Origin: Prorocentrum cordatum
Taxonomy: Eukaryota
Length of the DNA: 56,943 bases
Direction: 5' to 3'
NCBI GenBank assembly: GCA_963575745.1
Contig: CAUYUJ010000052.1
Location: forward strand, 62,001-118,943
The position numbers and the translations under genes were made by a program. This document shows positions 4,332 through 27,834 of the stretch, piece by piece. The notes under the pieces were generated by a model that had not been told where the DNA came from, made no database searches, and saw nothing but the letters and a program-made list of their open reading frames with translations. Each line of letters begins with the position of its first letter. The stretch's first letter is position 1.

Positions 4332-6109
4332 AAATGCAAAAGTCGGTTCGAACATCAAAAGTCTTGGGCCAGACTGGAGACCTGCCAGACCAAGACAGCG
4401 CCCGCAGCGCACCGGAACTGCCGCCGCGTGCGGGCCGGGTGGGCCCGCCCGCCCCGCCAAGGGGAAGGCGCTCCGTGGGTCTGGAGAGCCCCCCCCCGCG
4501 CGCGAGCGGCCACAGCGCCCACCGTGGTCCACAATGGTCCCGACACGAAAGTGGCGATGTTTCAGGCGAAGTGCTCCTCAGAACACTTCTCAGGCGGCGC
4601 GAGGGCTTCTGAGACGCCCCGCCGCCTTCTGGCAAGGCCTTCTACTCCTTCTTTCCCCCCCCCTGGCTTGCCGCCTCGCCGCCGACCTTTCCGGAAAAGG
4701 AGGAGGAGAAGGAGGAGGAGCAGGAGGGGAGTATGAGGAGGAGGAGGAGGAGGAGGAGGAGGAGGAGGGGGAGGAGGAGCCCAGGGACGACTTTTCACCC
4801 CCAGTCGTTTTGGTTGACGGGCGGCTCCCAGCGAGGGCCCCCAGAGGCCAACGACGGTGTCCCGTGCGAAATGGCGCCTGAAACGATAGACCGAACGAAA
4901 CCCGACGCTGCAGCCTAACGCTTAAAACGGCATTGGTGCCAAACGAGACGAGCAGCAGAACGAGGCGGTTGAAACAACGACGAATGATGAACCGATGTAG
5001 ACAGGAAACACAAAACGCACAACACAACAAAGGCTTACACATAACTAAACGGCGTTGTGGTCGGTCTTTGGGTCCCGACAGGCCCCCATAATCCCAAAGA
5101 TGGTTCGCAAGATGGTGCAATGTAGCCCATGATGGCTAAACACATGGCATCGAACACAAGCTTCAAGAACGCCCAGAGACAGCCACAACACGGTTCCACG
5201 TCGCCCAGGACCCTCAACATGATGCCTCTTGGAGGTCGGGATCTTCCAAAAACCGCAGGTGCTGCATTGACTCGTTGACGTCGGCCTTCGGCCTTCTAGC
5301 CTTGCCGCTCACGATGAACGACCGAGGTCGCAAGGTGACCGCAAAGCCCAAGCCGCCCAAGGGAAACCCCGGAGGGAGCCCGAAGAACGAACCCCAGGAC
5401 GGCCCCCAAGCGACACGCGGTCAGCCTTTTGGACCTCGCTCCCCCCTTCTCGCCGTGCGTCGCCGTCGGGCGGGGGGGGGAGCCCCTCTCCCCCCCCGAC
5501 AAGGCCAGGGAGGGCGCGGGGCCCTTGGCCGCTGCGCCGCGAGCGCCCCCCCCCCACCCGAGGGAGCTCCTGGCGGCCTCTGCCCAGGCAGGCGCGCCGC
5601 TGGCGGCGGCCTGGTGGCGGGGGCCGGGAGAGCGTGGAGGCAACGCCTGGGGGGCCTTCGGTGGAACCCCGACTGGAGGGCCGCTTCACCGGATCAGGCC
5701 GGCTTGAGCCCGCGACCGAGCCAGATGACCCCAGATGAACCAGAATAAGCCGGATTGGCCCCGACGAAGCCGGTCATCGACCGCAGCGCCGATGCAGAAT
5801 CAAACCTCCCAGGGAGGGGTCAGGCCGAGCCGATGATGCAGGTCGGGTCGGGCGGTAAGGCTGCAGGCTCCGCACAAACGGCACCCCCCGGGCAGGCCCG
5901 GCCGGCCTCGACAGGCCCCCAGAGTGGTTCGGGGCGGTCTCAACACCCTGGCGCCGCCTCCACCGGCGCACCTTGGGGCGCTCCGCGCCTGGGGGCTCGG
6001 GGGCCCGTCGCAGAACATGCAAAACATCGGATGTCTGGGATCGGATCGGCCGCGCCAGAATGCACAACGGCGCCGCGCAAGCAGCAGGCCGCATCGGCCC
6101 GTCAGAACT

Positions 6110-6646
6110 ATCAGAATCCCTGTGGAGACCTAAAGAGATCCCCAATCGGGTCCTTTAGGATCCCATATAGAGGCCTTATAGAGAACCCGATAGGTTCACT
6201 CGGATCCCTATAAAGACCCCATGGAGATCTCTATAGGGCTAGGATCCCTATAGAGACCCTATAGAGACCGTTAGAGGGCCCCTTTCGAAACCCTATAGAG
6301 ATCCGATCGAGATCCCTATGGGGCCCCCTCAAGAGCCCAGTGGAGATCCTTTCTAGAGATCCCGAATATTTCCCTATAGGACCCCTTTTAGGACCCTGTA
6401 GAGGCCCTATAGAAATCCCCACAGGGTTCCTTTAGGAAGCCTGCCGGGATCCTATGGCGATCCCTATAGGGTCCCTCTGGGAACCCTAGAGAGACCCGAT
6501 AGATATCCCTAAAGGATTACTGTTGAATCCCTATCGAAACCCTGTAGAAATCCCTAGAACAAATCCGTTCGGGCCCCTATGGAAACCCTGTGGAGATCCG
6601 TATCGGGTCCTTTAGGATCCCCACAGAGACCCTATAGAGATCCCTG
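6110..6646. repeat. Degenerate GATCCCTATAGAGACCC-type satellite (left flank of the large transposon)
   Basis: Recurring CCCTATAG/GGATCC/GAGACCC units. The same satellite resumes at 20901. Confidence 0.85.
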
Positions 6647-7163
6647 CCTGAAAGGAACGCTTCGGTTAGTAATAGTTAGCTGGAGTTATAACTAGTTAGT
6701 AACTCGTTATAACTAGTCCCCGTCTTGGAGTTTTTGGAGTGACATGTTCGTTTTGCTGGCTCATATTTGAGTTTTTTTTTGGGGGGGGGAACGTGCATTT
6801 TGTTTTTTTGGAGATTGCATGTTGTGTTCTTGTCATATCGATGTGTTTTTTTTTTTTTTTGTAAAATATGCGCTAATAGAACAATTTACGGTATTCCACT
6901 GGCCAAATGCACGCGATATGATCGCCAACTCTCCTGTAAACCACTGGAGATTTCAACGAACTGAAGGGGGTGAGAACGGGGTCGCGGGCATCATCGATGA
7001 CATGCCTAGTAAAGTGTTCGCTCGCATGCGCGTGCTTTGTAATCAGAATCTGAACTAAGCTCTGCGGCGGATCGCCGTCGCATGTCACGTGGAACCACAC
7101 TTGGACTGCAACGTGGCCACGATCGCGACCCATCAGAACTATGTCACCACGTTTGCTTTTCCC

Positions 7164-8990
7164 TCAATGTTCGGTGTGCGCTTCAATGGTCGAGGCTGCT
7201 GCATGCGTGCCTGGCCGCGGCCGCTGCAAAGCACTCAACAAACGTTTGCTTACAGCTGTGGCGCACTCGAACTCGCACTCCAGTGACAAGCCGCGGATGT
7301 TCTGTAGATCATGCATGTGCTGAGCAGTGAGCTGGATCATTACAGCCTTCTCGGGCCTCGTCTTGCACAGGTGGTCCTTTGCAAATCCTTTGACATGTTT
7401 GCGTTTCCGCTCTTGGACATAACATGATAAAGCACCATCCCTCTCGAACATATCAGCCAAGTGGACAGCCATATGATGCTTAAACACCGAATACTTGGCA
7501 CCATATGCACGCTGGTGAAGCTCCAAATGTTTCAACACTGCTGACTCAATCTCGTCGCGCGTGCATGGCAATCGCCTCGACGCGCAGAGAATAACTTCCA
7601 CGGCGTCACATAACGCCAGCATGCTTGCTATCTGGTCTGCGACTGCATCGCATGATGGTGAACTGGCAATTGCTTGCCTGATGTACAGAGCCAGCGCGGG
7701 AATCGCAGATAGCTCTTGCGAGGCACTCGCCTGGAAGTCTCCCGTTTGCCAGACTGTTGCAGCAGAGTGGTGTTTGGATGGCCACGTCCACTTCGCGATG
7801 TAATCGTGGAGGTCGCCGTTGCTGCACAAGTTCTTGACATCTTTGTGCTCTAGGAGGGCCCTGACTTTCCGATCAAACATGCCACTGACGACATATACGT
7901 GCATCCAGCCGAAGCAGAAGAATGTCATCACCAAGTATCTAAGAAACGGGTCCAGTGCGACATGCTTTGGATGGAAATTCCAACCTTTCACCTGCGTCAC
8001 AGATGTGTACTGCGCGTCTGTGATCTCGTCTCGCTGGTACCTCTCCCAATCAGGGCGCAACCTCTCCAAGACCGCGACGACTGTCGCATCGGTGTTGTAT
8101 ACGAGTTTGCTTTTGTCTAGGCAGGTATCATCAACGTATGTCCCCGAACTGTCGAATTGCGTGTAGCCGAATTTCTTGTTAAGGACGTTCCTGCAAATTG
8201 CGCAGGGCTTAGAGCCAGCGTGCCCCTTGTTCATATGAAGCTCACTCAATGCCTCCTCGTCTCTTATAACACACGCCAATCTCGCAACGATCGTTGCGTA
8301 TGTTGTTGCGTCACCCAGCGCAGATACATCCAGCGTAACCCCCGTTGCCAAAGTTAACGCCACCCGATCTATTTTTTTTTTTTAAAAAAAAAAGCTCGCC
8401 GAGCATCATGCGGATAGATTGCCCGATGCCCCCAGGCATATCTTTCACCTTGGCAACGCGCGCGGTGCTGAGGGTGAACCATAGATCTTCGTTTTGCAAA
8501 TGTTCGTCAAAATCGGCAAAAGACCAGTACACAGCATCCATACCACGGTAGTCTTTGCCTTTCGCGAGAGGATCGCGTGGCGATATATCATCAAAATAAA
8601 GACTTAGGGTCCAAGGCACAACTAAAGAACATGGGTGCTTTTGCAATTGTTGGCGCATCAATGACCTGAACTGCCCGCTTTTCTTGCATATGGCGTACAA
8701 GAACGCCCCTGGGTTACACACCCAATTCTCAAATGTGGCCATCGTTATCGTCGCCAACAGGCAGCTGCACGCCATTCAATATAAGGCCATATGTGTTACG
8801 ATCATTGACCACATGTTTCTCGTATGCCCTATATTGGGACCCCCGCGAGACAGCGTCTGGCAACCCATTGTCACGAACGTATGTGAGCACGTGAGACAAT
8901 GCTGCCTGGGAAACACACGGGCCGCGGTGGACCCCAACTAATGCCTCGGAATGTGTTCGGGACCGCTTCGGCCGCGGACCCGACGCCGTA
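7164..8990 (-). pseudogene. CACTA/EnSpm-like DDE transposase, frameshifted
   Basis: Three joined ORFs (8729-9127, 8311-8775, 7164-8363). Motifs LSLYFDDISPRDPL..AVYWSF (D1), VIRDEEAL..KGHAGSKPCAIC (D2 plus CxxC), FGWMH (decayed DxMH), KHHMAVHL, SCYVQERK (E). The probable start is mutated to ACG at 8990. One frameshift lies at a T/A homopolymer near 8372-8393. Confidence 0.8.
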
Positions 8991-8992
8991 CC

Positions 8993-9010
8993 AGCCAAAA
9001 TGCTTACGGA
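8993..9010 (-). promoter_or_regulatory. SL-like sequence upstream of the transposase
   Basis: TCCGTAAGCATTTTGGCT vs DCCGTAGCCATTTTGGCT (16/18). Confidence 0.75.
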
Positions 9011-9145
9011 CTGATGCGATATGCGATGACCGCAACGCAATCGACACGAGCGAGACAGGGTGCGACGATCGCACCGTATTTGTTTTACACCACAGATGCA
9101 CAAGCGAATCCATCGCTGCAACAACAAACAATGAGATGTGCTGGC

Positions 9146-10633
9146 CTACGACCGATCGTCGATGAACGCCAAGGCAGCGGACCACGCCTCAGCGCGCGAG
9201 CGCACGCCAGGGCCCCACTTGATCCTCTTGTCGCTCCGCCCCACTACGGGGCGATATACCTGCTTGTCGTTCTGGGTCAGGGCGTAGCCAGCCCTGTAGT
9301 GGAGGCCCCCCGCCTTCGCAGGCGGCGGCAGCACCTTCGGCTTCGCGACGTGGCTTGAAGGCCTCTTCGCGACGACCTTGCCCGTGCTATTGCCCGTGCT
9401 CTTGCTGCCCTTGCCGTGTCCCTTGCATGTGTTATGGCCTTTGTGCTTGTGTTTGATGCCCTTGCCCTTGCCCGTGCTCTTCGGCTGCTCTGCATCCTCT
9501 GATGCATCTGCTTCGGCGGCATCGGCGACCGCGTCACCAGCCGCGGCGGGGCGCTCGCGCGCGGCCGTCGCCGCGGCCGCGGCCTTCGCCTTGGTGGCGA
9601 GCAGCTTGCGCAGGGCGGCCTCCTCGTCGCTCAGGTTGGCATCGGGCTGTTCGTCATCAACGGTTGGCTCGGCCGCCGCCGACTTGCCGAGCGTTGGCTC
9701 CTCACGGGGCGGAAGCTTCGCCTTTGGTGGCTCCAGAGGGCAGCCCCCTGAAGATGCCCCTGTGTGCACCCCTGTAGACGCTCCTGCAGACCCAGCTGCA
9801 TGTCCTCCATGGAGTGCCACATTGGCGAAGGGAGCCGCGGCCAACTGCCCCCCGAACATGTTCTGGCGCATATGCATCTGCCCACCAACCGTCATATCTG
9901 GCATCGCGGCCTTGGCGTGGGGGGGGGGGGCGCGACGGGCTCAACGGTGGTAGTCTTCATGATCTTGCTGGAAGACCCTCGCACGAACTCGGGCTCGTCG
10001 GCACCCGTGTCCTCCATGTATGGGCCTTCGGCGTTGTCATGCGCCTCTCCCCACCATGCCTCGCTATGCATCTGGTCGATGGTGCCGTAATCCCAGATCG
10101 TCCTGCACCCGCGTTTGGCCCGCGCTTTCGCAGCGACAGCTGCGCCCAACTTCTTCTTCACATCCTTCAATAGTTTCATCCACGCACCTGCATTGTCACA
10201 TTTCCCAACGGCATGTGCCACCACAGCCGCCACTCGCGCCTTACTTTTTTTCCAGATAACGCACGCATGCCAATTAGCGCTGCACGGTTGACCGCAATGT
10301 TTACACGCGCCTTCTCTGATAAATCCCACCTTCAACTTAGCGAGCTCAGTCGCTGTGAGGCATTTAGAGAAGATGGTTACCTCCTGCCACTTCTTAGAAC
10401 CGCTGGTGTATCCCAACAAGCCAGTCTTGTTACCAACGGCCGACAAAGCTGGGCAAGCTCTCGCGAGCTCCAATGGTCCAGTGCTCAAGTTTCCCAGATT
10501 GTCAACTTTGAGGAGCAACTGGTCAAATTGACCCTTGGCCACTGCGGCGGGATCCAACGCACAGCTTATCTGAGTTTGCACCCATTCGTGCATAAGGTTT
10601 AGCTCAGCGAAAAGGTTTGGCACGGACGTCATT
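9146..10633 (-). pseudogene. Cargo gene: unknown protein with Ala/Lys-rich linker and C-terminal AP2-like beta-beta-beta-alpha segment
   Basis: ORFs 9892-10929 (from MTSVPNLFAEL) and 9146-9904 join through a slip in the G-run at ~9919-9930. The C-terminus is LHYRAGYALTQNDKQVYRPVVGRSDKRIKWG..RAEAWSAALAFIDD. SL-like motif at 10704-10721. Confidence 0.6.
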
Positions 10634-11015
10634 GCGAAGTAAACGCAAGTAGATGGCGCGACAGATCGCGACGTGGCAAGTGGATATCGAACGTCAGACT
10701 CGCGGGCCAAATGGGATACGGATAAGATGCCGACTGCAACATCACATGCAAGTGCAGGGCGGCCCGACCGCGGTGGGGGGTGCATTGGGGGGGGGCAACA
10801 ATGGTGCAGCCCCCCGCGCCGTCGCCAATCACCCTCATCCGCACATCCCCTCCCCTGATTCGCTGTCGTCGTTGCCACTCTGCGGCCAGACCGCAAACCA
10901 CAAGCGGGATCGTATGCAATCATGTGCATGATGTTAATGCAACAGATGCAAGATAGTTCGACACACGTCGCACGGCTTTACAGCTTGCATTTCTAGTGCG
11001 CGATCCGACTCGGGA

Positions 11016-11403
11016 TCAGGCCACGCCCATGGACTCCGCATGCTCAAGCCATGCGACTGCGACGCTGTGCGACTCGATCGCAGCCCCACGGTCCAGAATT
11101 GAGTTCATCCACTCATCCTTCGCCTTGAGGAACGCGGCGTAGTCGACATCTGCCTGTTGAGGCCGCTGGGGGTCAGGGTGGGGGATGGCCGTTGTCATGG
11201 GGCGGGGAACTTAATTAGCAATACGTTATTAACCGCATGCATGCCTTCTTGGTCAGTGTTTTCACACGGGAGCGAGTCGACGCCACATCCTTGTTCGCAG
11301 CCTTGACAATCTCTTTCTTCTGGCGGGCCCGCTCCTCACGCTCCCCCCTAAGCTCATGACGACCCTGTGCCTCCATCGCCTTCTGCTTGGTGAACTTCAC
11401 CAT
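11016..11403 (-). CDS. Cargo: small basic helical protein(s), possibly two exons or two ORFs
   Basis: Protein-like ORFs 11215-11403 (MVKFTKQKAMEAQ..) and 11016-11198 (..VDYAAFLKAKDEWMNSILD). SL-like motif about 60 bp upstream. No in-frame splice was confirmed. Confidence 0.45.
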
Positions 11404-11462
11404 TGCAGCCGGAACAGTTTACGTGCAAGGGCCTGCGCGCGCACACACGCACACGCGCACAC

Positions 11463-11483
11463 CTTGGGCCAAAATGCTTACGA
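11463..11483 (-). promoter_or_regulatory. SL-like sequence
   Basis: TCGTAAGCATTTTGGCCCAAG vs CCGTAGCCATTTTGGCTCAAG (17/21), followed by GT. Confidence 0.75.
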
Positions 11484-11657
11484 AAGGCTCGATTGCCGCC
11501 GTAGCGCCGCCCTATAGACCCCACTGGCGTGCAGACCCACATGTGCATGACGTTGCATTGTTGCACGCAGCGCCACAAGCGATACGATGAATGCGTTTGC
11601 ACGCATGGGCGACCCTAGTAGCTACCCCGCTACCCTGTAGCTAACCCCGCAAAGCTG

Positions 11658-11878
11658 CTAGAGCGCACTACGCGACGCCGAGGGCCTTGCGGCCCCGTGC
11701 CCGCGTGAGGCCACCCACTGCAACGAGGCGACCAGCTGCGCGAATGTGCACATTCCTCCACACCTCTGCCCCCCGCAAAACCATGCGGAACACCTCCTCG
11801 GCGGCCTCCGCCTGTTTCATGGCTCGCTCCAGCTTCTTGAACGCCGCATCTACCGTTCGGGGAGGGGAGGATATGGCG
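11658..11878 (-). pseudogene. Cargo: small helical ORF lacking ATG (..RTVDAAFKKLERAMKQAEAAEEVFRMVLRG..)
   Basis: Reading frame translated by eye, with coiled-coil-like composition, on the same strand as its neighbours. Confidence 0.35.
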
Positions 11879-12060
11879 TGAACACGACCCTACCAACCCA
11901 CACCTGGAAACATTCAAACCCTGTAACACACGAAGCGATTGGGGTGTCGAATCGAACCACAGCAACGCAATACAATGATTCGTACACGTGTGTATCAACA
12001 CGCGTATACATGCAACGCAATGCAAGTCAGTATAGTAGCCAACACTACGAAACATAAAGA

Positions 12061-12219
12061 CTACATAACGAGCTCAACCTTATTGTCGTTATTCTTCGCC
12101 TGTGATTTAGTGTATTTCACGTGCCTGACGGTGGCCGTGCGCGCGGCGTTGGAGCCCGCCCTGTCCCCGCGACGGCGCTGGGCCCGCAATGCCTTGAGTT
12201 GGGCGGACATCGCAGGCAT
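12061..12219 (-). CDS. Cargo: small Arg-rich ORF (MPAMSAQLKALRAQRRRG..)
   Basis: Within ORF 12061-12276. SL-like CCGTAGCCGTTGTGG (13/15) at 12273-12287 lies just upstream. Confidence 0.35.
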   Translation of the reverse strand: MPAMSAQLKALRAQRRRGDRAGSNAARTATVRHVKYTKSQAKNNDNKVELVM

Positions 12220-13634
12220 GATGTGCACAGCGGCGCGCAGACGCCTCGCGCGAGAGAGACGCGCCTCGCGTACCACAACGGCTACGGCCGAGATGCATAT
12301 TGCGACTTAGTCGCACAATGCAATATCACATGATGCATCCCCCCTCTCACATTCGCACCGCCGTCGGCACCGACGACGTGGTTCGCCGCCGCCTCACATC
12401 ATCAACATCATCACCGTCACTGTCGTCATCGTCGGCATCATCATCATCATCATCGTCCGTCGTCATCACCATCATACTCATCATCGCAATCCGCCCCTCT
12501 TCCCCACCGCAGCATTCGTCGTATGCCATCCTGGAGATCCTTCCACAACATCAACGATGATCGCCGTCCCTACACCCGCCCTCTCATTCGTTGCACTCAG
12601 TTTGAACCACCTCCCGTGCCACACATCCTGTCCGTCCGCACTCTCCTCGCCATCGTTATCGCATGCTCCCACTCGTGGCCGTCGCCGTCGTCACCGTCGT
12701 CGCCGTCGTCGCCGCCGTCGCGCCCCGACCCCCCTGGCCGCGGAGGGGGCGCGCGCAGGACGGCGCCGCTCTGGAGGGGGTCGGCGCGCGACGGCGCCGC
12801 CGACGACGACGACGGCGCCGACGACAACGGCGGCGACGAAGACGACGACGACGACGACGGCGATGACGACGGCGACGAGGACGACGGCAACGGCAACGGC
12901 GACGGCGGCGGCGCCGGCGGCGGCGACCACGAGGGCAATGCGACACACCACAACGAGAAAACGAAATGACACGGGGCGGGGGGGGGGGGGCACATGAGCT
13001 CGAGCGAACGAGGACCTGGATATCTGATAGCGTCGACTGAACACTGGGAATGGGACGAGGCGGTGGAGGAGAGCTGGTGACGATGGCGACGGTGGCGAAG
13101 GTGGTGGTGACGGTGGTGACCGACGACGACGAAGACCGATTGCGGTGGTGGCGATGACGACACTGATGATGAGGCGATGAGGTGACGACGGGAAACGAGC
13201 GGCGGAAGATAGAAGCAACGAGGGAAGGACGATGGACGGATGATGAGCGAACGCTGGAGGACGACGATGGACGGGCGATGGGGGCAACAAAGGAGGGGCC
13301 ATGGAGGACGGGCTGCGGGGGCGATAATGCGAGGATGATGCTGCACCGTTTTTTTTGCGGCTCGTGGCCCCTGTGGCGGTGTTTATCTGCGCGCACGCCG
13401 TGGGGCTGATAACTATCATCGTGTCCACTTAAATTATCCACAACAGATGCACACCTGTGGGTTCTAGACAAGACGTCAACTACAGGAGCGGGAGGTGTAT
13501 ACTATCAACTGATCACGAACGACCCCAAATGCAAACCCGTCGACCGAAATTTCACCCCTGGAATGATCCAAGACCGCTCAAATCGTCGCCACCAGGACTC
13601 GCCACCAGGAAACTGTGATCCGACCACCCCGCTG

Positions 13635-13785
13635 TCGTATATGAGAAACTCATATACGACAACTTTGTCGTATATGAGTTTTTCATATACGACAGCGCTG
13701 TCGTCAACACTATCACACCGAGTTTGTCGTATATGAGTTTCTCATATACGACAGCGCTGTCGTATGTGAGAAACTCATATACGAC
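13635..13785. repeat. Four 27-bp palindromes GTCGTATATGAG-AAA/TTT-CTCATATACGAC
   Basis: Copies at 13635, 13667, 13726 and 13759 with the loop in mixed orientation. Confidence 0.9.
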
Positions 13786-14090
13786 AACTGAGCCTCTGAT
13801 CGCTTCAGAAGGAGGGGAGGGGGCAAACTGTTCTCGCAGTCGCGATTGCGGAGAGATCTGGAGGCAGCGCGTGAGCCTAGAATTAGCGATGAGCTGCCGT
13901 AACCTTAGCTGTAGCCCTTGGCCGCCGTCGTGGCAGCCCAAAGCCGCCTGTCGCTGCAGCCCTTGGCCGCCGTCGTCGTGGCAGCCCTTGCCGCCAGTCG
14001 CGGCAGCCCTTGCCGCCGTCGTGTCAGCCCGTGGCCACAGCTGTAGTAGCCACCGACGCGGCCCTTGCCACCGTCGCGGTAGCCACTGTC

Positions 14091-15259
14091 CTACGACAGG
14101 TTGGCATCGCGCCACGCGCGCTGGGCCTCCCTCCACACATGCGCGTGGAGCCTCTTGTTCCACTCGATGTACTTCATCTGCTGATAGTCGTAGCCATCGA
14201 AGCCCTCGACCAGCTCTTTCACCGCCAGGGCCTTGGCGAGGCGGATGTGCTTGCCACCGCGCGGCCGCGGGACGTAGTAGTCGTCGTCGCCGCCCTTGTG
14301 GCCGCTGCCCTTGCCACCATCGTAGTAGCCCTTGTGGCCGCTGCCCTTGCCACCGTCGTAGTAGCCCTTGTGGTCGCTGCCCTTGTCGCCGTCGTGGCCG
14401 CTGTCGTGGTAGCCGACGTCGTTCTGGCTGCTGTCGTAGTAGCGGCCACGCTTGCCGTAGTAGCTGCTGCTGTCGTGCTTGCCACCGTGCTTGCCACCGC
14501 TGTGGTAGTAGTCATCGTGCTTGCCACCGCTGTGGTAGTAGTCATCGCCCTTGCCACCGCTGTGGTAGTAGTGGTCGTCGCCCTCGCGCTCGTAGTAGCC
14601 ATAGCGCTTGCATGGGCGCTTCTTCGGCTGTGGCTCATCACCGTCGTAGTCGCGGCCCTTGCCACCGTCGTAGGCGCTGTCCTTGCCGCCGATGTAGTAG
14701 CCCATATCGCTGCCCTTGCCACTGGTGCCCCTGCCACCGTCATAGGCGCTGCCCTTGCCACCATAGTAGTAGCCCGTGCCGCTGCCCCTGCCGCCGTCGT
14801 AGGCGCTGTCCTTGCCACCGCTGTAGTAGCCCATGTCGCTGCCCTTGCCACTGTCGTAGCCGCTGCCCTTGCCACCGTCGTGCGCGCTGCCCTTGCCACC
14901 GTCGTGGTAGCCCATGTCGCCGTAATCGTCGTCGTCTTGAACGAAGTGCTGCAGGCCGTGCATCTGGTTCATGCTCGGGCTCATCGCGGGCGCCATGTCG
15001 AACATGTCGAGCAGCTGGTCCGCCGCGCACTGCCTCGCGTGCTCGGCGGCGGGGCGGTCGGCGGCGGCCGCGGCCCGTAGTGCTTCGCCTCAGGCGGGAC
15101 CGCAGGCTGCCGCGGCCCGAACTTCGACTTCGGCTTCAGCGGCGGCGGTGGCGCTGGCGGCCGCAGCGCTGGCTGCGGCTCGGCAGCGCCGCAGCCGCGG
15201 CGGCGGCGGTTGAGGTCCTCCGCCGCGTCCAGGAGGAGCGCCACCGCAGCTTCGTCCAT
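14091..15259 (-). pseudogene. GGKG/YYD low-complexity repeat protein (paralog 1), one frameshift
   Basis: MDEAAVALLLDAAEDL..Pro-rich segment (ORF 14981-15502) shifts frame near 15040 into ORF 14091-15005 with YYDGGKGS repeats and QQMKYIEWNK. SL-like motif at 15385-15408. Confidence 0.6.
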
Positions 15260-15384
15260 GGCGCTGGTGCTGCTGCGCGTGGTGCGATGCTGGTTGCGCG
15301 GGTGCTGCTGCGCGTGGTGCGCTGCTGGTTGCGCTGGTGGGGCTGCGCGTGGCGCAGCGCCGCACTGGCGCGAAGGCCCAAACG

Positions 15385-15408
15385 CTTGGGCCTGAAAAGT
15401 GGCAACGG
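15385..15408 (-). promoter_or_regulatory. SL-like sequence with small insertions
   Basis: CCGTTGCCA(C)TTTT(CA)GGCCCAAG vs CCGTAGCCATTTTGGCTCAAG. Confidence 0.65.
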
Positions 15409-15628
15409 ATGAGGATATGGAGGTGAGGCTGCTGAGGATGGTCGATGCAATCGTATGCAACATGCGTGTACTGTCCTTTTTTTCTGCGCCGTGCAATCCC
15501 ATGCGGTGTACCGCAACGCATGCGTGTTGCTATACTAGCTGCATGCACCCCCTAATACAAAAGTGAAACACTAGGGGCGGCCGGCGGCAGACGACGGGCG
15601 ACGGGCGACGGACGCCGACGACGGACGC

Positions 15629-15662
<34 letters not shown>

Positions 15663-15762
15663 ACGACTGAGGGGTTCACCGCCGTTTGTGCTCAATTCCG
15701 AGGCCCCATGCAGGGCCACGTCCCCCCAGCGGCCCTCCCAGGGCCCATCGGGGGACATCCAT

Positions 15763-16876
15763 ATGCCATGGATCCCAAGGTCCCTCGAGGACCATCTCGC
15801 GAGCCGCGGTGATGGCACCGCGTTCGACGAGAGGATCCCCGATGCCATCGCGAGGTCAGCGATTTCGGCGGCGTTCGCCGAGCTGAACGAGGAGCTTGGA
15901 ACGAGAAAGGGGAACGGAGGGGATGAGAAGGGGTGGATGGATAGGGTTCATAGCACATACCCCCCATAAGGAGTTGAAGCGCCAGTGCCAACGCGCAGGC
16001 GACGCAGAGCGCGAGACGAAGAGGCTGAAGCTGGAGATGCACAGCGGCTGCAGCGGCCACAAGGGCGGTGACGACGACCACAAGGGCAGTGGCGACAGCA
16101 GCGGCCACAAGGGCGATGACTACAACCACAGCGGTGGCAAGGGCAGCGACCACAAGGGCGACGACTACTACCGCGACGGCGGCAAGGGCAGCGACATTGG
16201 CTACTACGACGGTGGCAAGTGCAGCGACGACGGCTACTACGACGGCGGCAAGGGCTTCGATGGCTACGACTATGGCAAGGGCAGCAATGGCTACTACGAC
16301 AGCGGCAAGCACGACAGCGGCAAGGGCAGCAATGGCTACTACGACGGTGGCAAGGGCAGCGATGGCTACTACGACTATGGCCAGGGCAGCACGGGCTACT
16401 ACGACGGCGGCAAGGGCAGCGATCAGCAATGGCTACGACGGCAGCAGACGAAGTACATCGAGTGGAAGCAGAAAAATAGTGTGCAGGGCGGCAACTATGA
16501 CGGTGACAAGGGCAGCGGGTACGACGGCGGCACGGGCTGCCACGACGGCGACAAGGGCTACCACGACGGCGGCAAGGGCTACCACGACGGCGGCAATGGC
16601 AACTACGACGGCGGCAAGGTCTGCAACACCTACGACGGTGACACGCCCGCGGGCAGCGACACGGGCTACTACGACGGTGGAGGCAGCGACTACGACGGTG
16701 GCAAGGGCGGCGCCTACGACTGTGGCAAGGACAGTGACAAGGGCATCGACGCCCGCAGTGACAAGAGTGCGGACGACAGCATCGCGAGCGTTGCCGCGAG
16801 CAAGGTCACTGGCGCTTCTGACTCAGATGTGATGGTGCACGATTCTGGCACTCCAGACTCTGATAGTTCGGACTGA
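15763..16876 (+). CDS. GGKG/YYD low-complexity repeat protein (paralog 2), two exons (15763-15891, 15971-16876)
   Basis: ATG at 15763. A 79-bp GA-AG intron (15892-15970, AG|G at both junctions) joins ..AFAELNE|ELKRQCQR.. in frame. YYDGGKGS repeats and QQTKYIEWKQ. SL-like GCCGTTTGTGCTCAA at 15681-15695. Confidence 0.65.
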
Positions 16877-16962
16877 TGCTCGAGGAGCGATACAGAAAAG
16901 GGAGAGGGATGGGGATGAGAGGGGGGTCAGACGGTGAGCGAGCGAGCGCGTGCTAGTCGCGA

Positions 16963-17896
16963 TCACTCGGCCGCGTTCTCTGGATCGACGCCGCGCGTAG
17001 GCGAATCTTCGCCAGGTTGGCCAGCAGGCGAACCGTCGCCATCATCATCGTCAACCATATCGTTCCCCTCGGTGGCAGCTGATGTTGCACCGAAGACTTT
17101 GTGCAGCTTGAGCGATGTATACGGGTTCCCAATCGTCGACTTTAGATTGCACCCGTTGCGGCACGCCGTCTGTACCACGTATCGTCATGAACGCTGTCTT
17201 GCGACGCTTGTCGCAAAATACGCAAGTGGCGCCACACGTGGAACTGGCTCGCTTCTCTCGGTCATGCGCGTCGATCGCTGCAGCCACCGCTGCAACGCGC
17301 ACGTACTCCATAGCAGCAGGTACACACTCGATCGAGACCTTCTTGCACGCCTTTAACTCGAACAGAAACGTCAACGTGATAGCATCGTGCTTCAAGTGCT
17401 GGCCGCCGTGCGTGCACTCCACCGCCGGGAACGATGCAGTCACGGTCTCTGGCATCAGAGATGCATCGAGTATACCCCGATTGATCGTGACGATCGAGGC
17501 CTTATCGGCATCGTCCTGAAGCAACGGGTCTGTCTCTTTCATGTGTTGCCAGATCGCATCGTCACATGCGGCGCTCCTCATCTTCATCAGATCACCAAAG
17601 AAAGCGTTGTGCGCTAGGGGAGCGTTTGACTTTGCGGGGTTCGGGGCTCCGATGAAGTTCTTAAGCTTGCGATCGCTCTTCGGCAGCCCCAAGAATAGCG
17701 AACCAGCCGCTTGGATAATCTGTCTGGGGGCCCATGGGTCTTTCAATGCACCCCCCTCGATGACAGTGCGCATGTGCACAGTCACGGGCGTGATTGCAAA
17801 CCAAAGCTCGAGTGGAAACGCATACGGACAAGGCAACGATTGCCGACGTCCATGCGGCATGCGAGCGATAACTCATGGCACTGCGTTTGCCGCCAT
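16963..17896 (-). pseudogene. Cargo: unknown ~300-aa protein
   Basis: Complex protein-like ORF 17051-17860. The upstream ATG (~17896) is separated from it by an in-frame TGA. The acidic tail lies in shifted frame 16963-17178. Confidence 0.55.
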
Positions 17897-17973
17897 GGGA
17901 AAAAAGCGACGTTTTGCAAATGGCCATATTGCAATCGAACGCGCGTTTACTGCATAGATGTATGCATACAACG

Positions 17974-20459
17974 TCACTCCCTAGACTTCTTCACTGCGGG
18001 CGCAGGCGCATCCTCAGCCTTGCGCTTTGGCATAAACGATGCCAGCGGTGCGATCAGCGCGTCTCCCTTCGTGACGTCGCTTTTGTTGGTCAGCACCTGC
18101 GCAGACACAGACGGCGTCACATCGGACTTCATGGTCGCGACCTTCATGTTTGCATTGAGTTCGGGGGTCGACTCCTGCACGAACCAAAATGGAATGACTG
18201 AGGAGCCAGGGGCCTTTGTCAGCCCCCCTACACCCGCATTCGCCTGCACCTTGGGCATCTTCGCGCCGCCAGTGGGGAGCAACGCGACGTTGGAAATGGC
18301 GCCTTTGAAGTCCTTGTACGACTTCGCAAACGCGCTCCCGTTTGGTGAGTCCTCGTTGGATTTCTTCACGACGATGCTCGAAGTGAGTGGGGCAAGCACT
18401 ATCTCTCCTGTTTTGAATGCGCGCGTGGCAGTGATAGACCGATACTTAACAGGCGATGTTACGCCAGTGATGCCCCTCAAGCAATCTGAATGCTGGGCGT
18501 GCATGTCGTCCAAGGCGATTCTGATTTTCGCCTCCTCAATTGACCGCTGCCAGCCGGCGCTCATCATGGGGCCGTGGTCAGCAAACTTTTCGATTATTTC
18601 CTGGGAAGGATGGGGGGGGGGGGCATGCGAGAGGCATAGCGCTGGATGGGCGAATGGATTGTTAAAAATACATAGAGCGGGGGACGCATAGACAGAGAGC
18701 GAGCGGGGGAACGAGAGAGGGATGGGGATAATGATATATGTATAGAGATGGATAGACAGATGAAATAGAGGACGGGTATATATATAGAGAGAGAGAGGTG
18801 TCGTCAAAACAATTGAAGGCCGGGTTGCGACGAGATCGCATGTTGCCCTAGCTGTCCTTAGTCGTGCTCGAGACGTACTTCCCATTTAGCATCTCGTCAA
18901 TGCTCTCAACCACTGTCTTACTCCCGATCATCAACTTCACGCCCTTCGCATCGACCCCAACGAACTCGAACGCGCTGTCCCTGTCGTCGCCCTTCGCCAA
19001 GCAGAGCTTTGCTTTCGACGCGAAGCCTCTCTCCGACAACTTATCTGCCTGGTTGGACCATGCGCCTGTCGCAGTATACTCCTTCACACCCGAGCTTGTA
19101 GCCGTTTTGGGCGCTGCTGCAGGGGCGGCCATGACCCCCCATGGGCTGTCCACTGGTTTGCCCACGTGCGTTGCCAACGCAGTACAGAAGCTGGCGACAA
19201 TATCTGGCAACGTTTTGGCGCTGCCCAACCGTTCATCTGGTTTGTTGAATGCGAAGTGCACGACGCGAACATCAGTCAACCCTGCGATGGTGCCGTATGC
19301 GAGCGTGTCTGGCGTAACGCCTCGGTCGTTTGCGATCTCTCACACCTTCTGCAAGAACTCATCCGCATGCAGAACAAGTGTAGCCTTCTTGTCACCAGAC
19401 AGCGCGGACACGTCCTGGCCTTAAGAGCATCTGATGGCCGTCCCTGGCGCACTTGCCACTCGCGGCCGCCGTGGCTTTCATGCGCGCGAGTTCGAATGTC
19501 ACCGCAGCCCCCTCGTTTTTGATCTTCACTTCGGCGAGGCTCTTCGCCATGGCGCCTGTGACCACGCACTGGGCAGTTAATTGCCGCGAGAAGTCCCGCA
19601 ATTCGCCGGGGCAAATTGGCCCGCCCAAACCACCCGACATCTCTTTCACATACGTTACCAATCCGTCGATTTCCCCAGGGAAGAGGGAACCCGCGCGAGT
19701 CGCCTCTTGAATGACCCTCGGCCAATCGATCTTGTCCTTGATTTGCCAAACGGTTCGCAATGGATGCGATCTTGAACTTCAGGCTCAATCGGGGCACGCA
19801 GCGCGCGATCTGTTGCCCCGCATTGCCTGCTCCCTGGGCAAGGTTTGAAATCCAATGGGAACGCTTTGACAAATCCATGCCGAAAGACCTTCCACTCAAT
19901 GCCCTCATCGCAAGCCTTTGCGTAGTCGGGCTGCGCTTCCCTCAACCTCGTCATTGGCAGAAACCCATATTGTGAAATCCTGTCGAATCGTTCTGGATCG
20001 TGCTGCGGCACAAACAACGCAGACCCATGCTCGTATGTCCACGCGTGTAGCTTGCGAATTTAGCTTCGCATTAATAAAGGCATTTGGCCAGCAGAATCTT
20101 TCATTAACTTATCGCTGAACGCTTTGACCTTCTCATATTCCGCCGAGCATGTTTGCAATTCCATGCGCGCTGGATTTTGAAGGGCCGAGTTCTTGAAACC
20201 GTTCCTGAATATTTTTACGATAAAATCTAGCACATCGCTCGGGACAACCCCATCCCCATGCCTGTTTTCCATGCACACGAACATGTATTTGCTATGAATC
20301 CCCTCCATCCTGATGCAATCGATGCCAGGCCGCTGCGCCATGGCGCATACCTCTTCGAACAAAGAAACAACGGGGGGCGCCTGGCTGCTCATGCGCAGCC
20401 TTGATTGCATGCATCTCCCCAACAACATTCTGCATGTTCAGTTCACGCTCGGAGGTCAT
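17974..20459 (-). pseudogene. Cargo: large protein with putative N-terminal ParB/Srx-like domain and C-terminal SET-like domain
   Basis: Chain of ORFs 20292-20480, 20060-20428, 19655-20017, 19392-19760, 18848-19279, 17974-18885. N-terminal motifs VCMENRHGDG..DVLDFIVKIFRNGF..P and FASYTRGHTSMGLR. C-terminal motifs ITATRAFKTGEIVL, PFWFV..NANM, VLTNKSDVTKGDAL. In-frame GA-AG intron at 18601-18856. Confidence 0.6.
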
Positions 20460-20485
20460 GGCGCCTCGCGCGGAAACCACCTCTG

Positions 20486-20506
20486 TTGAGCCAAAAGCCT
20501 ACACGG
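20486..20506 (-). promoter_or_regulatory. SL-like sequence upstream of the ParB/SET-like gene
   Basis: CCGTGTAGGCTTTTGGCTCAA, ending 26 nt before the ATG at 20459. Confidence 0.65.
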
Positions 20507-20900
20507 CGCATGCATATGTATGCAAATGAACATTGCAATCTTGCAATAACACCCTTCGAAATTCACGAATGAATTGCACCGGTCGCACTCGCATGGGGGG
20601 AGTCAGGCAACACTCTAGCAACGCCATGCCGAAACACGAATAGCAACATTGAAAAAGAACTAAACACCAGGGAAACCAGCCTACACGTCATGGCTTTTGC
20701 CAACATATGCTGAAAGTTAGCAGAGTTGCTGAGTTTTCTAACTCCGCGTAACAAGATTAAACAGAGGGACCAAGTTAGGGAAGTGAGTAAGTTTATAACC
20801 TAGTTATAACAACTTATACTTACTTATAACAGACATATAACATAGTTATACCATGGTTATAACTCACGGTAACACTTATTAACCACGCCGATCATTTAGG

Positions 20901-21690
20901 TGATCCCTCTGGACCCTGTAGATATCCCATACCCCTGTAGGGTCCTATTCGAAGTCCTACACAGATCCGATCGAGATTCCTATGGGGTCACTTAAGGAGC
21001 CCTATACAGATGTCTTAGAGATCCTAGAAATGCATCCCCATAGGACTCCTTTTCAGGACCCCGTAGAGACCCTATACAATTCCCTACAAAGTCCCTTCCG
21101 GAGACCTATCGGAATCCGATGGAGTTCCCAATCGAGCCCCTTTTGGAACCCGATGGAGACCCTATTGAGATCCCTGGAAGGTCACTGTTGGATCCCTATA
21201 GAACCCTGTAGAGATTCCTAGAAAAGGATTCTTTAAGGATCCCTATGGAGACCCTATAGAGTTTCCCAAACGGCTCTTTAGGATCCATATAGAAACCATA
21301 TAGAGACCATGAGGATCCCGCTGGGATCCCGATAGGGTCCCATAGATACCGTATAAGATCCCACTAGGACCCCTACTGGATCACTATAGGGCCCCAATAG
21401 GATCTCTATAGAGAGTCAGAAGGGCCTGAAAGGTCGCCAGCGGCTCCCTGCAGGATCCGTTGAGGATCCCTATAGAGACCCTATGGAGATCCTGGGGGGC
21501 CTGAAAGGCTCTACAGGATCCCTTTCGGATCCGCAAAGAGACCGTATACAGATCCTGCAGGGCTTGCAAAAGTCTCTACAGGATCCCGATGGAAACCCTC
21601 AAGAGATCCCTATAGGATTATTATAGAGAACCTGCAGGGCCTGCGCGGTCCCTATAAGATCCCGATAGAGAACCCCGCAGAACCCCTACA
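20901..21690. repeat. GATCCCTATAG-type satellite (right flank)
   Basis: Same motif vocabulary as 6110-6646. Confidence 0.85.
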
Positions 21691-21908
21691 TAAATACAAG
21701 TAGTCGTGGCACTGGCAGTAGCAGTATGTAGTACACTTTATACGATTCGTACTCGTAGTATTACTACTACTCAGACTACTGGTAATATTTCTAATACCAG
21801 TAGCGCTAGTAGTACTGGTAATACTAGTAGTAGGTGGGTTGAGGTTGCTGGGTTGCTGGTTGCTGGGGGTGGTGTGGGGGGGGGGGGGCCTTCAAACCCG
21901 CCTTGACC

Positions 21909-21950
<42 letters not shown>

Positions 21951-22832
21951 TACTAGCACGTGGGGACACTCCGTTCTCACCAGTGCCAGGGTTTTCATAG
22001 GAGGCGGGCAATACCCCCACTTTGTGGGGGGGCCGGTTCAAGCTCTACCAAATTTCCAAACGACTCTTCGCCACCACCCACACCCAGCTTCCCGCCCTAT
22101 GACGTTCGGACACTTCACTTCGTGGCCTGCGGACGACCTTGGCTACTACACTGGCGCATGGGTACAGTGACTTGTTGTGGTAACATTTTCTGTAAGCTAG
22201 CTTAGTATACGACTTTTCCCCCTGTTCCAACACTGGACACCTGTACTGGACCTACGGTGCGATTCGTGCGATTTTATGATACGCGGTGCTGAAATTCTTA
22301 AGAAACCCAATGGTGTTTGAAGATTTCGGCGTGCGCGCGCGAAGAAAAAACGAATGTGTCCCATATGGTATTATTTGACAGGGATGATGGCCCTGGCATG
22401 CGCGCAACCGTTGTTGCAGAAGTTCGAAGCACGTGAAAAAGTTGCTCGCAAGAGCCCGTTTGACAGAAATGTTGAAAAAGTATTGGGTTTCCTAAGAAAT
22501 CCGCAAGAGCGCGCGGGATGAATTTTTGAAACTTTTTTTTTGAAAAACCATTGGGTTTTTCATGTTTTTATGTTAAAATCGCTACGAAAACTAAGGTTTT
22601 GGAAGGATTTCATCTTGCGCGCGCGAGTGTGCACTTCGTGTCATTTTTTGCAAAGGATTCTTGAAGTTTGGTTATGTTAGAACAAGACATGTCATTTTAT
22701 ATTGTTTTTTGACAGGGAAAGCGGGCGTCAACAAAACAACCGGATCCGGACTCCCCCGTTTTGCCTGAGACTTCCTCACGAAAATGATGAAAATGTGGCT
22801 GCGGCCTAGGCGCGGCGAGGGGGGCGTGCACC

Positions 22833-27729: not shown

Positions 27730-27812
27730 GGCGGCAACGGCGGAGTAACAGGGGCTTGGCAGCAGTAGGAGCAAACCAAATGTTCCCGATTCCTGCAGAG
27801 TTGCCACAATGT

Positions 27813-27834
27813 CTTGAGCCAAAATGGTTACGGA
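27813..27834 (-). promoter_or_regulatory. Relict dinoflagellate spliced leader
   Basis: TCCGTAACCATTTTGGCTCAAG vs DCCGTAGCCATTTTGGCTCAAG (21/22). Not followed by GT. Confidence 0.92.

Follow-up and report, generated by a model that had tools for sequence, protein, structure and literature searches.

Relict spliced leaders precede most genes of a repeated unit with a predicted transposase gene in Prorocentrum cordatum

In a 57-kb window of Prorocentrum cordatum DNA (56,943 nucleotides of contig CAUYUJ010000052.1, the whole stretch analysed), seven motifs resembling the dinoflagellate spliced leader (DinoSL) stand close to gene starts in what a preliminary description took to be a transposon with its transposase. 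They lie in a block of ~14 kb (about 6650–20890) between two arrays of ~45-bp repeats. Are these motifs relics of the leader, and how did they come to precede so many neighbouring genes? Relict DinoSLs upstream of retroposed genes trace to Slamovits and Keeling 2008, a source cited in the excerpts of PMC5585692 and PMC6050394, where, in two Symbiodiniaceae genomes, relics lie within 500 bp of 22–23% of gene models (Song et al. 2017, PMC5585692; Song et al. 2018, PMC6050394). Their meaning in these sources, as marks of mRNA-recycled genes, is the one that the preliminary description had given.

All seven motifs were found where that description had placed them, on the sense strand and 0–125 nt 5′ of the first ATG. 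Its match counts were reproduced for 11463–11483 (17/21), 10704–10721 (14/18), 12273–12287 (13/15) and 15681–15695 (12/15), and 15385–15408, described as having insertions, agrees with the leader at 19 positions and has 3 inserted bases; 8993–9010 matches at 15/18 ungapped, not 16/18. Chance was assessed from local alignment scores (+1/−1/−2) of the 21-nt DinoSL printed in PMC5585692 on both strands of the window, with 100 permuted leaders and 100 dinucleotide shuffles (both strands) as null models. Per strand per 57 kb, permuted leaders gave 0.02–0.03 matches at scores of at least 13 and 0.5–0.9 at scores of at least 11; dinucleotide shuffles gave 0.05, 0.27, 1.06, 3.6 and 13.2 at scores of at least 13, 12, 11, 10 and 9, respectively. 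The − strand of the window holds 4 matches scoring at least 13, 7 scoring at least 11, 12 scoring at least 10 and 24 scoring at least 9, and the + strand, with 0, 1, 5 and 13, is at chance level. Five of the seven noted sites score at least 11 (11463, 14; 8993 and 20486, 13; 15385 and 12273, 11), against ~0.26 expected for that strand within the block (1.06 scaled to a quarter of the window). The block is a quarter of the window, yet it contains 5/7 of the − strand matches of at least 11 (binomial ~0.013).

Table 1 Features of the block and its surroundings, with positions in the window.
Feature	Position	Strand	Details
Left array, ~45-bp repeats	6110–6650	.	flanks block
A15 run	6848–6862	−	14 nt after gene 1 stop; poly(A)-remnant-like, as read from the sequence
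Gene 1, predicted RAG1/Transib-like transposase pseudogene	6873–8989	−	start ACG; frame changes near 8745 and 8340; in-frame stop 7161–7163
Relict DinoSL of gene 1	8990–9010	−	TCCGTAAGCATTTTGGCTGG, then T, then ACG at 8989–8987; score 13; contains exact 15-mer variant
Gene 2	9146–10632	−	two ORFs joined over G-run frameshift near 9920–9930; no Pfam match
Relict DinoSL of gene 2	10701–10721	−	CCGTATCCCATTTGGCCCGCG; score 10 here (chance level alone); ATG 10632, 68 nt downstream
Gene B	11016–11403	−	small ORF pair, 62 and about 60 codons; possible intron, judged from sequence
Relict DinoSL of gene B	11463–11484	−	TTCGTAAGCATTTTGGCCCAAG; 17/21, score 14; exact 15-mer variant; ATG 11403, 59 nt downstream
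Gene C	11670–12219	−	two exons; plausible GT..AG/G intron of ~200 nt (about 11892–12090), by eye from frames and splice-like sites
Relict DinoSL of gene C	12267–12287	−	CCGTAGCCGTTGTGG...; score 11; ATG 12219, 47 nt downstream
Gene D	14091–15259	−	protein rich in Gly, Tyr, Lys repeats (GYYDGGKGS type); paralogue of gene E, inverted (inverted repeat I21)
Relict DinoSL of gene D	15385–15408	−	CCGTTGCCACTTTTCAGGCCCAAG; score 11; 19 leader positions matched, 3 inserted bases; ATG 15259, 125 nt downstream
Weak leader-like motif before gene E	15676–15696	+	score 9; 13 at scores of at least 9 observed on + strand vs 13.2 expected
Gene F2	17051–17860	−	269-aa ORF; no relic detected
Gene F1	17974–20459	−	frameshifts, in-frame stops; homologous to P0155–P0158 as far as ~18851
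Relict DinoSL of gene F1	20486–20507	−	GCCGTGTAGGCTTTTGGCTCAA; exact 11-mer TTTTGGCTCAA; score 13; ATG 20459, 26 nt downstream
Right array, ~45-bp repeats	20890–21670	.	orientation as left array
Best relic of window, outside block	27813–27833	−	20/21; 83 nt 5′ of ATG 27729 of a 175-codon ORF with signal-peptide-like start

Chance resemblance, or a by-product of local composition unrelated to the spliced leader, would suit 10704–10721 (in this copy) and 15681–15695, which score in the chance range, as well as the Tyr-Gly coding repeats, which yield several GTAGCCAT matches scoring 9–10. It would also suit a mechanical test, which was not significant (binomial P 0.18–0.98), of whether matches lie no more than 100–150 nt from the first ATG of ORFs of at least 60 or at least 100 aa; spurious ORFs are everywhere in this GC-rich DNA, so this test is uninformative either way. 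As an account of the motifs together, chance is extremely improbable, given that one strand holds 4 matches of at least 13 where 0.05 are expected and the other strand holds none, and given an exact 15-mer shared by two sites and a peptide compatible with 21/21 leader bases upstream of a distant family member, P0065. Both control sets contradict a chance origin for five sites. Strand enrichment is thus present on the − strand, and five sites exceed chance; the motif before gene E is not distinguishable from it, nor is 10704–10721 taken alone. The block motifs are genuine relict DinoSLs, beyond chance and on the sense strand, and they precede most block genes (5–6 of about 8–9), as had been claimed. 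The 20/21 relic before an unrelated gene outside the block indicates that retroposition is active in this genome.

Relics stand directly 5′ of homologue-supported start codons in two genes: that of gene 1 adjoins its start codon (0–3-nt gap), an ACG that aligns with the initiator Met (Met1) of P0003 and P0012, and the first ATG of F1 aligns with Met1 of its homologue P0158. By tblastn, gene 1 is colinear with the ORF-called homologues P0001, P0002 and P0003, with no intron-sized gaps. Its family, of 2606 representative clusters, has no sequence match in Pfam or PDB. For the structure model of the member P0005 (pLDDT 92.4), the top Foldseek matches are RAG1 (E 5.9e-8), HzTransib and BbRAGL, over ~600 columns, and the family alignment retains D, D and E plus a C..C / H..H set, the spacing of which we take to resemble RAG1 D600/D708/E962 and C727/C730/H937/H942. 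The predicted fold would place gene 1 in a transposase-type family matching RAG1, Transib and ProtoRAG; this copy is a pseudogene. With a relic touching the start, a colinear frame and an A15 run past the stop, gene 1 appears to be the clearest case of retroposition in the block.

We consider it fairly probable that the motifs are relict leaders of the ordinary kind, left when mRNA was copied into DNA, in a block that was later amplified as DNA. Each tagged gene would descend from an mRNA given its leader by trans-splicing; the leader-bearing mRNA would have been reverse-transcribed and returned to DNA ('mRNA recycling', or retroposition), and the composite, relics included, would then have multiplied as DNA. 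We infer the order of events and, from what relics mean in the literature, the RNA intermediate. To this extent the origin from reverse-transcribed, trans-spliced mRNA envisaged in the preliminary description is supported, with gene 1 as its best fit.

The number and content of copies were read from contigs of four DNA runs (X1–X4) on 6650–12390, divided into 30 bins. X1 gave 495 contigs on 5741 bases, covering 30/30 bins, with 71 contigs at an identity of at least 99%, 209 at 95–99%, 167 at 90–95% and 48 under 90%; X3, X4 and X2 covered 27/30, 25/30 and 15/30 bins, respectively. The stretch 6650–12390 is multi-copy in the four DNA runs. Contigs of X2, X3 and X4 span the 8993–9010 relic plus both flanks, indicating that relics travel within the repeated unit; under the retroposition reading, other copies would have the same relic and relic–flank junction because multiplication as DNA followed relic acquisition. 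Among the matches listed, position 10705 reads A instead of G in 4/4 X1 contigs and 1/1 X3 contig, which restores GGCTC and ...TTTGGCTC and raises the hand count of the gene 2 relic to 12, nearer the canonical leader. Spread at the DNA level may have been by cut-and-paste transposition or by segmental duplication, to which we give about equal weight. The two arrays have 22 12-mers in common in direct orientation versus 1 inverted, with 75% identity over 369 bp, and at the block ends inverted terminal similarity is weak, with neither a target-site duplication nor an RSS-like heptamer. Calling the unit a transposon with a transposase is apt for its repetition and for the predicted fold of gene 1; in the strict sense the unit is a putative transposon, given the weak inverted termini and missing target duplication.

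Several features of the block count against the retroposition reading. Gene 1 alone has a poly(A)-like run, which the spacers downstream of genes 2, B, C and D lack, and no target-site duplications were detected around any block gene. Parental untagged copies were not identified, and for most genes the term retrocopy rests on the relic. About six tagged neighbours, mostly in one orientation, exceed the ~20% background. Two of the genes, C and F1, apparently contain introns, F1 through a putative intron or spacer at ~18620–18850 followed by another ORF (17974–18620); introns had been held against simple recent retrocopies in the preliminary description, an argument that fails on published grounds, as the excerpts of PMC5585692 and PMC6050394 document intron-bearing retrogenes and a tendency of retrogenes to land near their parents. 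Two relics, before the unrelated genes 1 and B, carry an identical double change: the 15-mer CGTAAGCATTTTGGC is exact at 8994–9008 and 11468–11482 (− strand) and nowhere else in the window, and has a third copy with 1 mismatch at 27818–27832 (with at most 2 mismatches, 0.14 expected; 0/100 shuffles reached 3). The sharing reported earlier is real; its use as an argument against recent retrocopies is not supported. The spacers share TGCA-rich words (WTGCAW, 40 in the 14.2-kb block versus 34 in 42.7 kb outside), and GCATC lies 7–9 nt 5′ of 3/6 relics (P ~1e-4, lost on correction for post hoc choice of word); independent insertions do not predict such common words.

Distant relatives of two of the genes (transposase family and F1) appear to carry leader-compatible sequence upstream. 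In P0065, of the transposase family, IRSHFGSR stands 21 residues before the MTTVRKR start and can encode all 21 leader bases, whereas the best of 242,475 comparison placements outside the first 80 residues still has 2 mismatches to the leader; in P0116, of the same family, ACLAQG adjoins the family start. At the matching upstream place among F1 relatives, P0157 begins MAQA and P0156 has YRSVMAQ, peptides that, read from protein, would fit TTG GCT CAA G and CCGTAGC..GGCTCAA. Relics at matching places thus occur in relatives at 64–72% (F1 family) and about 23–30% (transposase family) protein identity. These places could equally be expected if selection kept the leader-like sequences as a portable cis-element of the mobile unit, a promoter-like site, trans-splice acceptor or ready 5′ end wherever the unit lands, their retro origin being old or irrelevant to that role. 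Such an element would fit the inheritance of relics by copies, their enrichment in the block, the single 15-mer variant before two unrelated genes and the spacer words including GCATC, and it has published parallels in the excerpts of PMC5585692 (TTT(T/G) core proposed as promoter) and of PMC10235124 and PMC9651163 (DinoSL on a dinoflagellate RNA virus, interpreted as molecular mimicry). We nevertheless regard it as unlikely. The relics here are unevenly degraded, with indels and 13–17 of 21 matches, and their distance to the ATG ranges over 0–125 nt; apart from short words the spacers show no alignment to each other, GCATC does not survive correction, and the 80-nt upstream stretches have no folding advantage over shuffles (z −0.78 to +1.34). 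F2 has no relic (no leader match scoring at least 9 in 17861–17973), the gene E motif is at chance level, and relics at matching places would also follow if retroposition recurred at a conserved splice site.

The orderly layout of the unit, in which most genes share a strand and the transposase comes last, invites a further account. Trans-spliced mRNAs of the element itself would have been reverse-transcribed and then recombined into element copies; a multi-gene DNA transposon that already existed would thereby have acquired leaders at its trans-splice sites, instead of the unit being assembled from separately inserted retrocopies. Relics exactly at the expected acceptor place just 5′ of starts, internal genes without poly(A) runs or target duplications between them, and introns retained in some genes agree with such cDNA-mediated conversion. 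However, homologous conversion should not import non-homologous ends (the leader and A15), and no relic-free version of the unit is present among the matches listed (40 of 552 differences, 32 of 612 pieces), which makes this origin distinctly unlikely.

On the retroposition reading, the relics may still have a present role: by published proposals, a new leader could be spliced to the AG of the relic, and the TTT(T/G) core, suggested as a promoter in the excerpt of PMC5585692, could be promoter-like. Of the hard-wired mimics that the preliminary description gave as its alternative, the promoter and acceptor parts have thus already been proposed in print for ordinary retrogenes and so would not be special to this element. 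Of the other block genes, gene 2 has one named relative (P0154, 88% identity over 94 aa), and F1 gave no match in a Pfam search and an unusable structure model (pLDDT 38.7).

The block thus presents a known phenomenon, relict leaders, in a new context, a repeated unit that includes a predicted transposase gene. As in known mRNA-recycled genes, the 22-nt leader is partial or slightly varied, on the sense strand and no more than 500 bp from the start codon, its T-rich core is kept, some tagged genes have introns and tagged pseudogenes exist; unlike in those, 5–6 neighbours of one repeated unit are tagged, the RAG1/Transib-like gene among them, and the relics are copied, as DNA, along with the unit. 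The family representative resembles Transib, RAG1 and ProtoRAG transposases by its predicted fold; in contrast to them, this copy is without an RSS-like heptamer, a clear terminal inverted repeat and a 5-bp target duplication. Transib elements are a few kb long with a single gene, whereas this unit spans ~14 kb and roughly eight genes, with no RAG2-like partner identified. Gene-prediction pipelines for these genomes discard transposon-like models, according to the excerpts of PMC7245778 and PMC10666404, so that tagged transposon genes have probably gone unexamined. A selfish or foreign gene bearing the host leader has a precedent in virus-derived dinoflagellate sequences: for dinoRNAV transcripts and endogenous copies, relics lie within 500 bp of 6/26 endogenous RdRp ORFs (PMC10235124, in excerpt), and they stand upstream of 13/59 virus-derived Symbiodiniaceae genes (PMC9651163, in excerpt). 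Both excerpts read these relics as signs of retroposition and propose mimicry and a TTTT promoter role. Those are scattered RNA-virus or viral genes tagged at about background frequency, whereas here a DNA-transposase family gene and its neighbours are tagged within one unit, at ~70%.

The preliminary description had placed seven motifs resembling the dinoflagellate spliced leader (DinoSL) shortly upstream of gene starts in a transposon; they are examined here as candidate worn genomic copies (relics) of the leader in a block of ~14 kb at 6650–20890 (genes 1, 2, B, C, D, E, F1 and F2). The 21-nt leader, as printed in PMC5585692, was aligned locally (+1/−1/−2) to both strands of the GC-rich window, and two controls were run: 100 permutations of the leader aligned to the actual window, and the unaltered leader aligned to each strand of 100 dinucleotide-shuffled windows. 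The shuffles yielded an expectation per strand of 0.05, 0.27, 1.06, 3.6 and 13.2 matches at scores of ≥13, ≥12, ≥11, ≥10 and ≥9, respectively, against 4, 4, 7, 12 and 24 observed on the minus strand and 0, 0, 1, 5 and 13 on the plus strand. All seven motifs lay where they had been described, and the 15-mer variant said to be shared was exact at two of the sites. Five sites scored 11–14, with ~0.26 matches of ≥11 expected on the block strand. The sixth (10701–10721) scored 10 in the window and is raised by other copies: at 10705, A stands for G in 4 of 4 contigs of sequencing run X1 and in the one X3 contig, which restores GGCTC. The seventh and only plus-strand site scored 9, the chance level for local alignment against the shuffles, and was not retained. 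The top three relics of the window all carry A at leader position 6. An automatic test for matches close to ORF starts, taken as the first ATG of each long ORF, detected no enrichment (P 0.18–0.98). With 256 ORFs of ≥60 codons crowding the window, that test is uninformative.

The relics lie ≤500 bp upstream of a start codon on the same strand, which is the criterion of PMC5585692. The distance from relic to start codon is 0–3 nt for gene 1, 68 for gene 2, 59 for B, 47 for C, 125 for D and 26 for F1, and in genes 2, B, C, D and F1 the first ATG past the relic opens the downstream reading frame. For two genes the start is backed by the N termini of homologues: the gene 1 relic is followed by three bases and an ACG that aligns with the initiator Met of the database proteins P0003 and P0012, and in F1 the ATG is matched by Met1 of P0158. 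Apart from short words, the spacers flanking the relics show no alignment to one another, so duplication of a single segment does not account for the relics. WTGCAW is 3.5 times denser in the block (40 in 14.2 kb versus 34 in 42.7 kb outside) and clusters in spacers upstream of relics, for example at 10900–10990, 12290–12340, 17910–17970 and 20508–20545; the distance of the TGCA words from the relics is variable, and the relics themselves are partial. Hairpins in these TGCA-rich spacers were considered and rejected (seven 80-nt stretches, z of −0.78 to +1.34 versus shuffles). GCATC occurs 7–9 nt upstream of three of six relics, which is not significant after correction, and ATATGCATC with ≤1 mismatch gave 13 matches versus 5.7 expected that were not relic-specific.

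Some database proteins were called from an upstream start and hence translate their 5′ region, so that leader sequence in relatives can be read from protein, although not from DNA. In P0065, of the gene 1 family, IRSHFGSR stands 21 residues ahead of the MTTVRKR start and can encode 21 of 21 leader bases; as a control, 242,475 placements beyond residue 80 of 158 proteins gave 2 mismatches at best. P0116 has ACLAQG directly ahead of the family start, compared with AILAQG in leader frame 3. In the F1 family, P0157 begins with MAQA, which fits TTG GCT CAA G, and P0156 has YRSVMAQ, which fits CCGTAGC ... GGCTCAA; P0155 has a weak RSGSS, and P0158 begins at its Met. The distance from relic to start also varies, from 0–3 nt in the window copy of gene 1 to 63 nt in P0065. 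Together, these readings show that the window copy is far from alone in having putative leader sequence ahead of these genes, a recurrence that would fit either repeated retroposition or long retention.

Four DNA sequencing runs (X1–X4) contain parts of the stretch. On the 5.7 kb at 6650–12390, X1 placed 495 contigs of graded identity that covered 30 of 30 bins, and X3, X4 and X2 covered 27, 25 and 15 of the 30. Contigs of X2, X3 and X4 cross the relic at 8993–9010 into both of its neighbours, and 12241 is joined to 9566 in a single X4 contig, the arrangement expected of a deletion derivative. These contigs indicate that 6650–12390 is multi-copy, in the sense of copy number and not of dispersal, and that the relics lie inside the copied unit. 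Neither blastn nor tblastx detected a further copy of the block elsewhere in the window, the only similarity being the distant F1-like stretch at 53010–53647.

The block, flanked by two arrays in direct orientation, looks like an insertion into an array of the ~45-bp repeat. Clusters of the word GTTATAAC lie directly inside the arrays, at 6664–6716 and 20800–20884. Inverted similarity at the block edges was weak (6664–6711 versus 20836–20884, score 34, where shuffles reached at most 30; blastn E of 0.05–0.19), and terminal inverted repeats with an end resembling a recombination signal sequence (RSS) were not found at the block, the RSS-like heptamer CACNGTG being absent from 6000–7000 and 20400–22000. 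No 5-bp target-site duplication was present, the flanking pentamers being GCTTC and ACGCC. Because of the weak inverted similarity, the missing target duplication and the missing heptamer, we call the block only a likely transposon.

Features located in the window, by position and strand
Feature	Position	Strand	Remarks
Leader relics proposed in the block	8993–9010, 10704–10721, 11463–11483, 12273–12287, 15385–15408, 20486–20506	−	
Seventh proposed leader site	15681–15695	+	
Near-intact relic	27813–27833	−	20/21, G6 to A; outside the block
~45-bp repeat arrays	6110–6650, 20890–21670		CCCTATAGAGACCC type; direct orientation, flanking the block
Palindrome of ~28 nt, four copies	13630–13790		GTCGTATATGAG...CTCATATACGAC; between genes C and D
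Head-to-head paralogous genes	14091–15259, 15923–16876	−, +	Gly/Tyr/Lys-rich repeats (GYYDGGKGS); KYIEW motif in both
Tandem units of ~386 or 703 bp	26500–31000	−	repeated Pro/Lys/Gln/Glu-rich frame (…PKMAQEGPKT…)
Distant F1 paralogue	53010–53647	+	27–35% identity to P0155–P0158; one frame change; outside the block
Dispersed 173-nt repeat, four copies	572–744, 33492–33664, 50431–50603, 54804–54976		61–100% identity; unrelated to the block

Gene 1 (6873–8989, minus strand) has few close relatives, yet its family is very large, with at least 2606 representative clusters at 50% identity (E ≤ 0.001) and members typically of 650–700 residues. An alignment of 51 members revealed conserved D229, C248, C251, D346, H349, K483, E507 and H510 and nearly conserved D123, H485 and H489. 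The spacings of the conserved D/D/E and C..C/H..H residues are presumably close to those of RAG1. The AlphaFold model of the family member P0005 (mean pLDDT 92.4), searched with Foldseek against the PDB, returned RAG1 chains first (E 5.9e-8, probability 1), with HzTransib at E 4.8e-6 and the amphioxus RAG1-like protein BbRAGL at E 3.1e-5. The earlier naming of gene 1 as a transposase is thus borne out by predicted fold and not by any sequence library, and the model, together with the conserved residues, supports a RAG1/Transib-like transposase family that has a predicted DDE core of RAG1 type with catalytic D, D and E and a zinc C2H2 set. Pfam matched neither P0001 nor P0003, both homologues of gene 1; its only matches among the 51 members were three to unrelated families, each confined to one member, and it has no model for the family. 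Sequence searches of the PDB returned nothing useful. Metagenome contigs scanned with a single protein gave 78 pattern matches and no relatives, the MNKGH..KPCAICRN motif, searched as a degenerate pattern, had no matches, and viral contigs yielded 9 pattern matches and no relatives. The window copy has an ACG start, two frame changes and an in-frame stop; by eye it keeps the conserved residues, but has G at the invariant D346 position. Judged from its sequence, this copy is a dead pseudogene.

According to passages of PMC5585692 and PMC6050394, relict leaders are an accepted tag of genes reverse-transcribed from trans-spliced mRNA; the same passages report a relic within 500 bp for 22–23% of gene models in two Symbiodiniaceae genomes, the existence of intron-bearing retrogenes, a tendency of retrogenes to land near their parents, and a proposed promoter role for the T-rich core of the relic. 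According to PMC6616646, relics seen in transcripts begin with CCA, from which the use of AG as an acceptor is suggested. The same relic logic has been applied to virus-derived genes in dinoflagellates, including the idea of mimicry, in PMC10235124 and PMC9651163. The simplest reading of the block is the one published for retrogenes, namely plain recycling followed by multiplication at the DNA level: the tagged genes would preserve the trace of a passage through RNA, with multiplication of the composite as DNA coming afterwards. If recycling is combined with an acceptor role, transcripts should have the canonical leader joined to the relic AG or close by, as in leader + CATTTTGGC....

Introns in two of the genes had been held against simple recent retrocopies. 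F1 and gene C each have an apparent intron in their sequence, but this argument is weak, since intron-bearing retrogenes have been published. Gene 1 is colinear with its homologues, with no intron-sized gaps; its family may simply be intronless, because the homologues were called as plain ORFs. An A15 run lies 14 nt past the gene 1 stop, the only such run among the tagged genes checked, with none after genes 2, B, C and D. No target-site duplication around tagged genes was convincing by eye, and untagged parent copies were not found. The simple reading leaves five points unexplained: that tagged genes are packed so densely into one block, that the spacers are rich in TGCA, that GCATC precedes three relics, that two relics share the 15-mer variant, and that the internal genes are not followed by poly(A) runs. 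Because of them we keep, as an improbable but live alternative, the proposal that large multi-gene units of dinoflagellates, built around a RAG1/Transib-like transposase, carry a DNA-encoded leader cassette before each gene, with CGTAAGCATTTTGGC under selection. Likewise improbable is a spread of the family largely through its own trans-spliced mRNAs. If a cassette, the portable signal would be an acceptor, a promoter-like core or a ready-made 5′ end, and the variant CGTAAGCATTTTGGC would be a selected form and no shared accident; if spread was by mRNA, a DNA-transposase lineage would be multiplying like a retrogene.

We regard the phenomenon itself as known, but its setting as new and somewhat puzzling. 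In the literature searched, mostly judged by title, no title dealt with leader relics in DNA transposons or with Transib-like elements in dinoflagellates. In published dinoflagellate gene sets, as described in PMC7245778 and PMC10666404, transposon-like models were filtered out before analysis. On the reading of recycling followed by DNA-level multiplication, a DNA-transposase family that is RAG1/Transib-like by fold would itself have undergone mRNA recycling, and leader-tagged genes could make up most of an entire repeated multi-gene unit. Should the relics be conserved or used, they would offer a direct test bed for the published promoter and acceptor ideas and show how selfish DNA is expressed where every mRNA needs a leader; if they decay neutrally, the block would be merely a dense patch of ordinary retrogenes.

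Pfam matched none of 11 window ORFs and none of the F1 homologues P0155–P0158. For the proteins of the window, the only named relative was a Prorocentrum cordatum product annotated as an unnamed protein, with 88% identity across 94 residues. On this match, the GC-rich composition and the 20/21 leader copy ahead of an ordinary-looking gene, the window is treated as nuclear DNA of a dinoflagellate. F1 shares 64–72% identity with its homologues and has several frameshifts in the window copy; its structure model was unusable (pLDDT 38.7). Frame changes in genes 2, F1 and 1 fall at homopolymer runs (9920–9930, 18610–18622 and 8300–8345; G10–12, A-run) and may reflect either genuine decay or errors of assembly; a 5-base deletion is present in other copies at 9919. 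The antisense strands of the two GYYDGGKGS genes hold several weak leader-like GTAGCCAT matches, and the palindrome copies adjoin long low-complexity DNA of GAC/GGC type (12400–13300).

Outside the block, the 1.5 kb upstream of the distant F1 paralogue contained no leader relic. The near-intact relic lies 83 nt ahead of a Cys-rich ORF (27202–27729, minus strand) with a signal-peptide-like start. The tandem units at 26500–31000 carry on the plus strand GCCATTTTGG, a 10-mer of the leader core, which is either a chance match or leader-derived.
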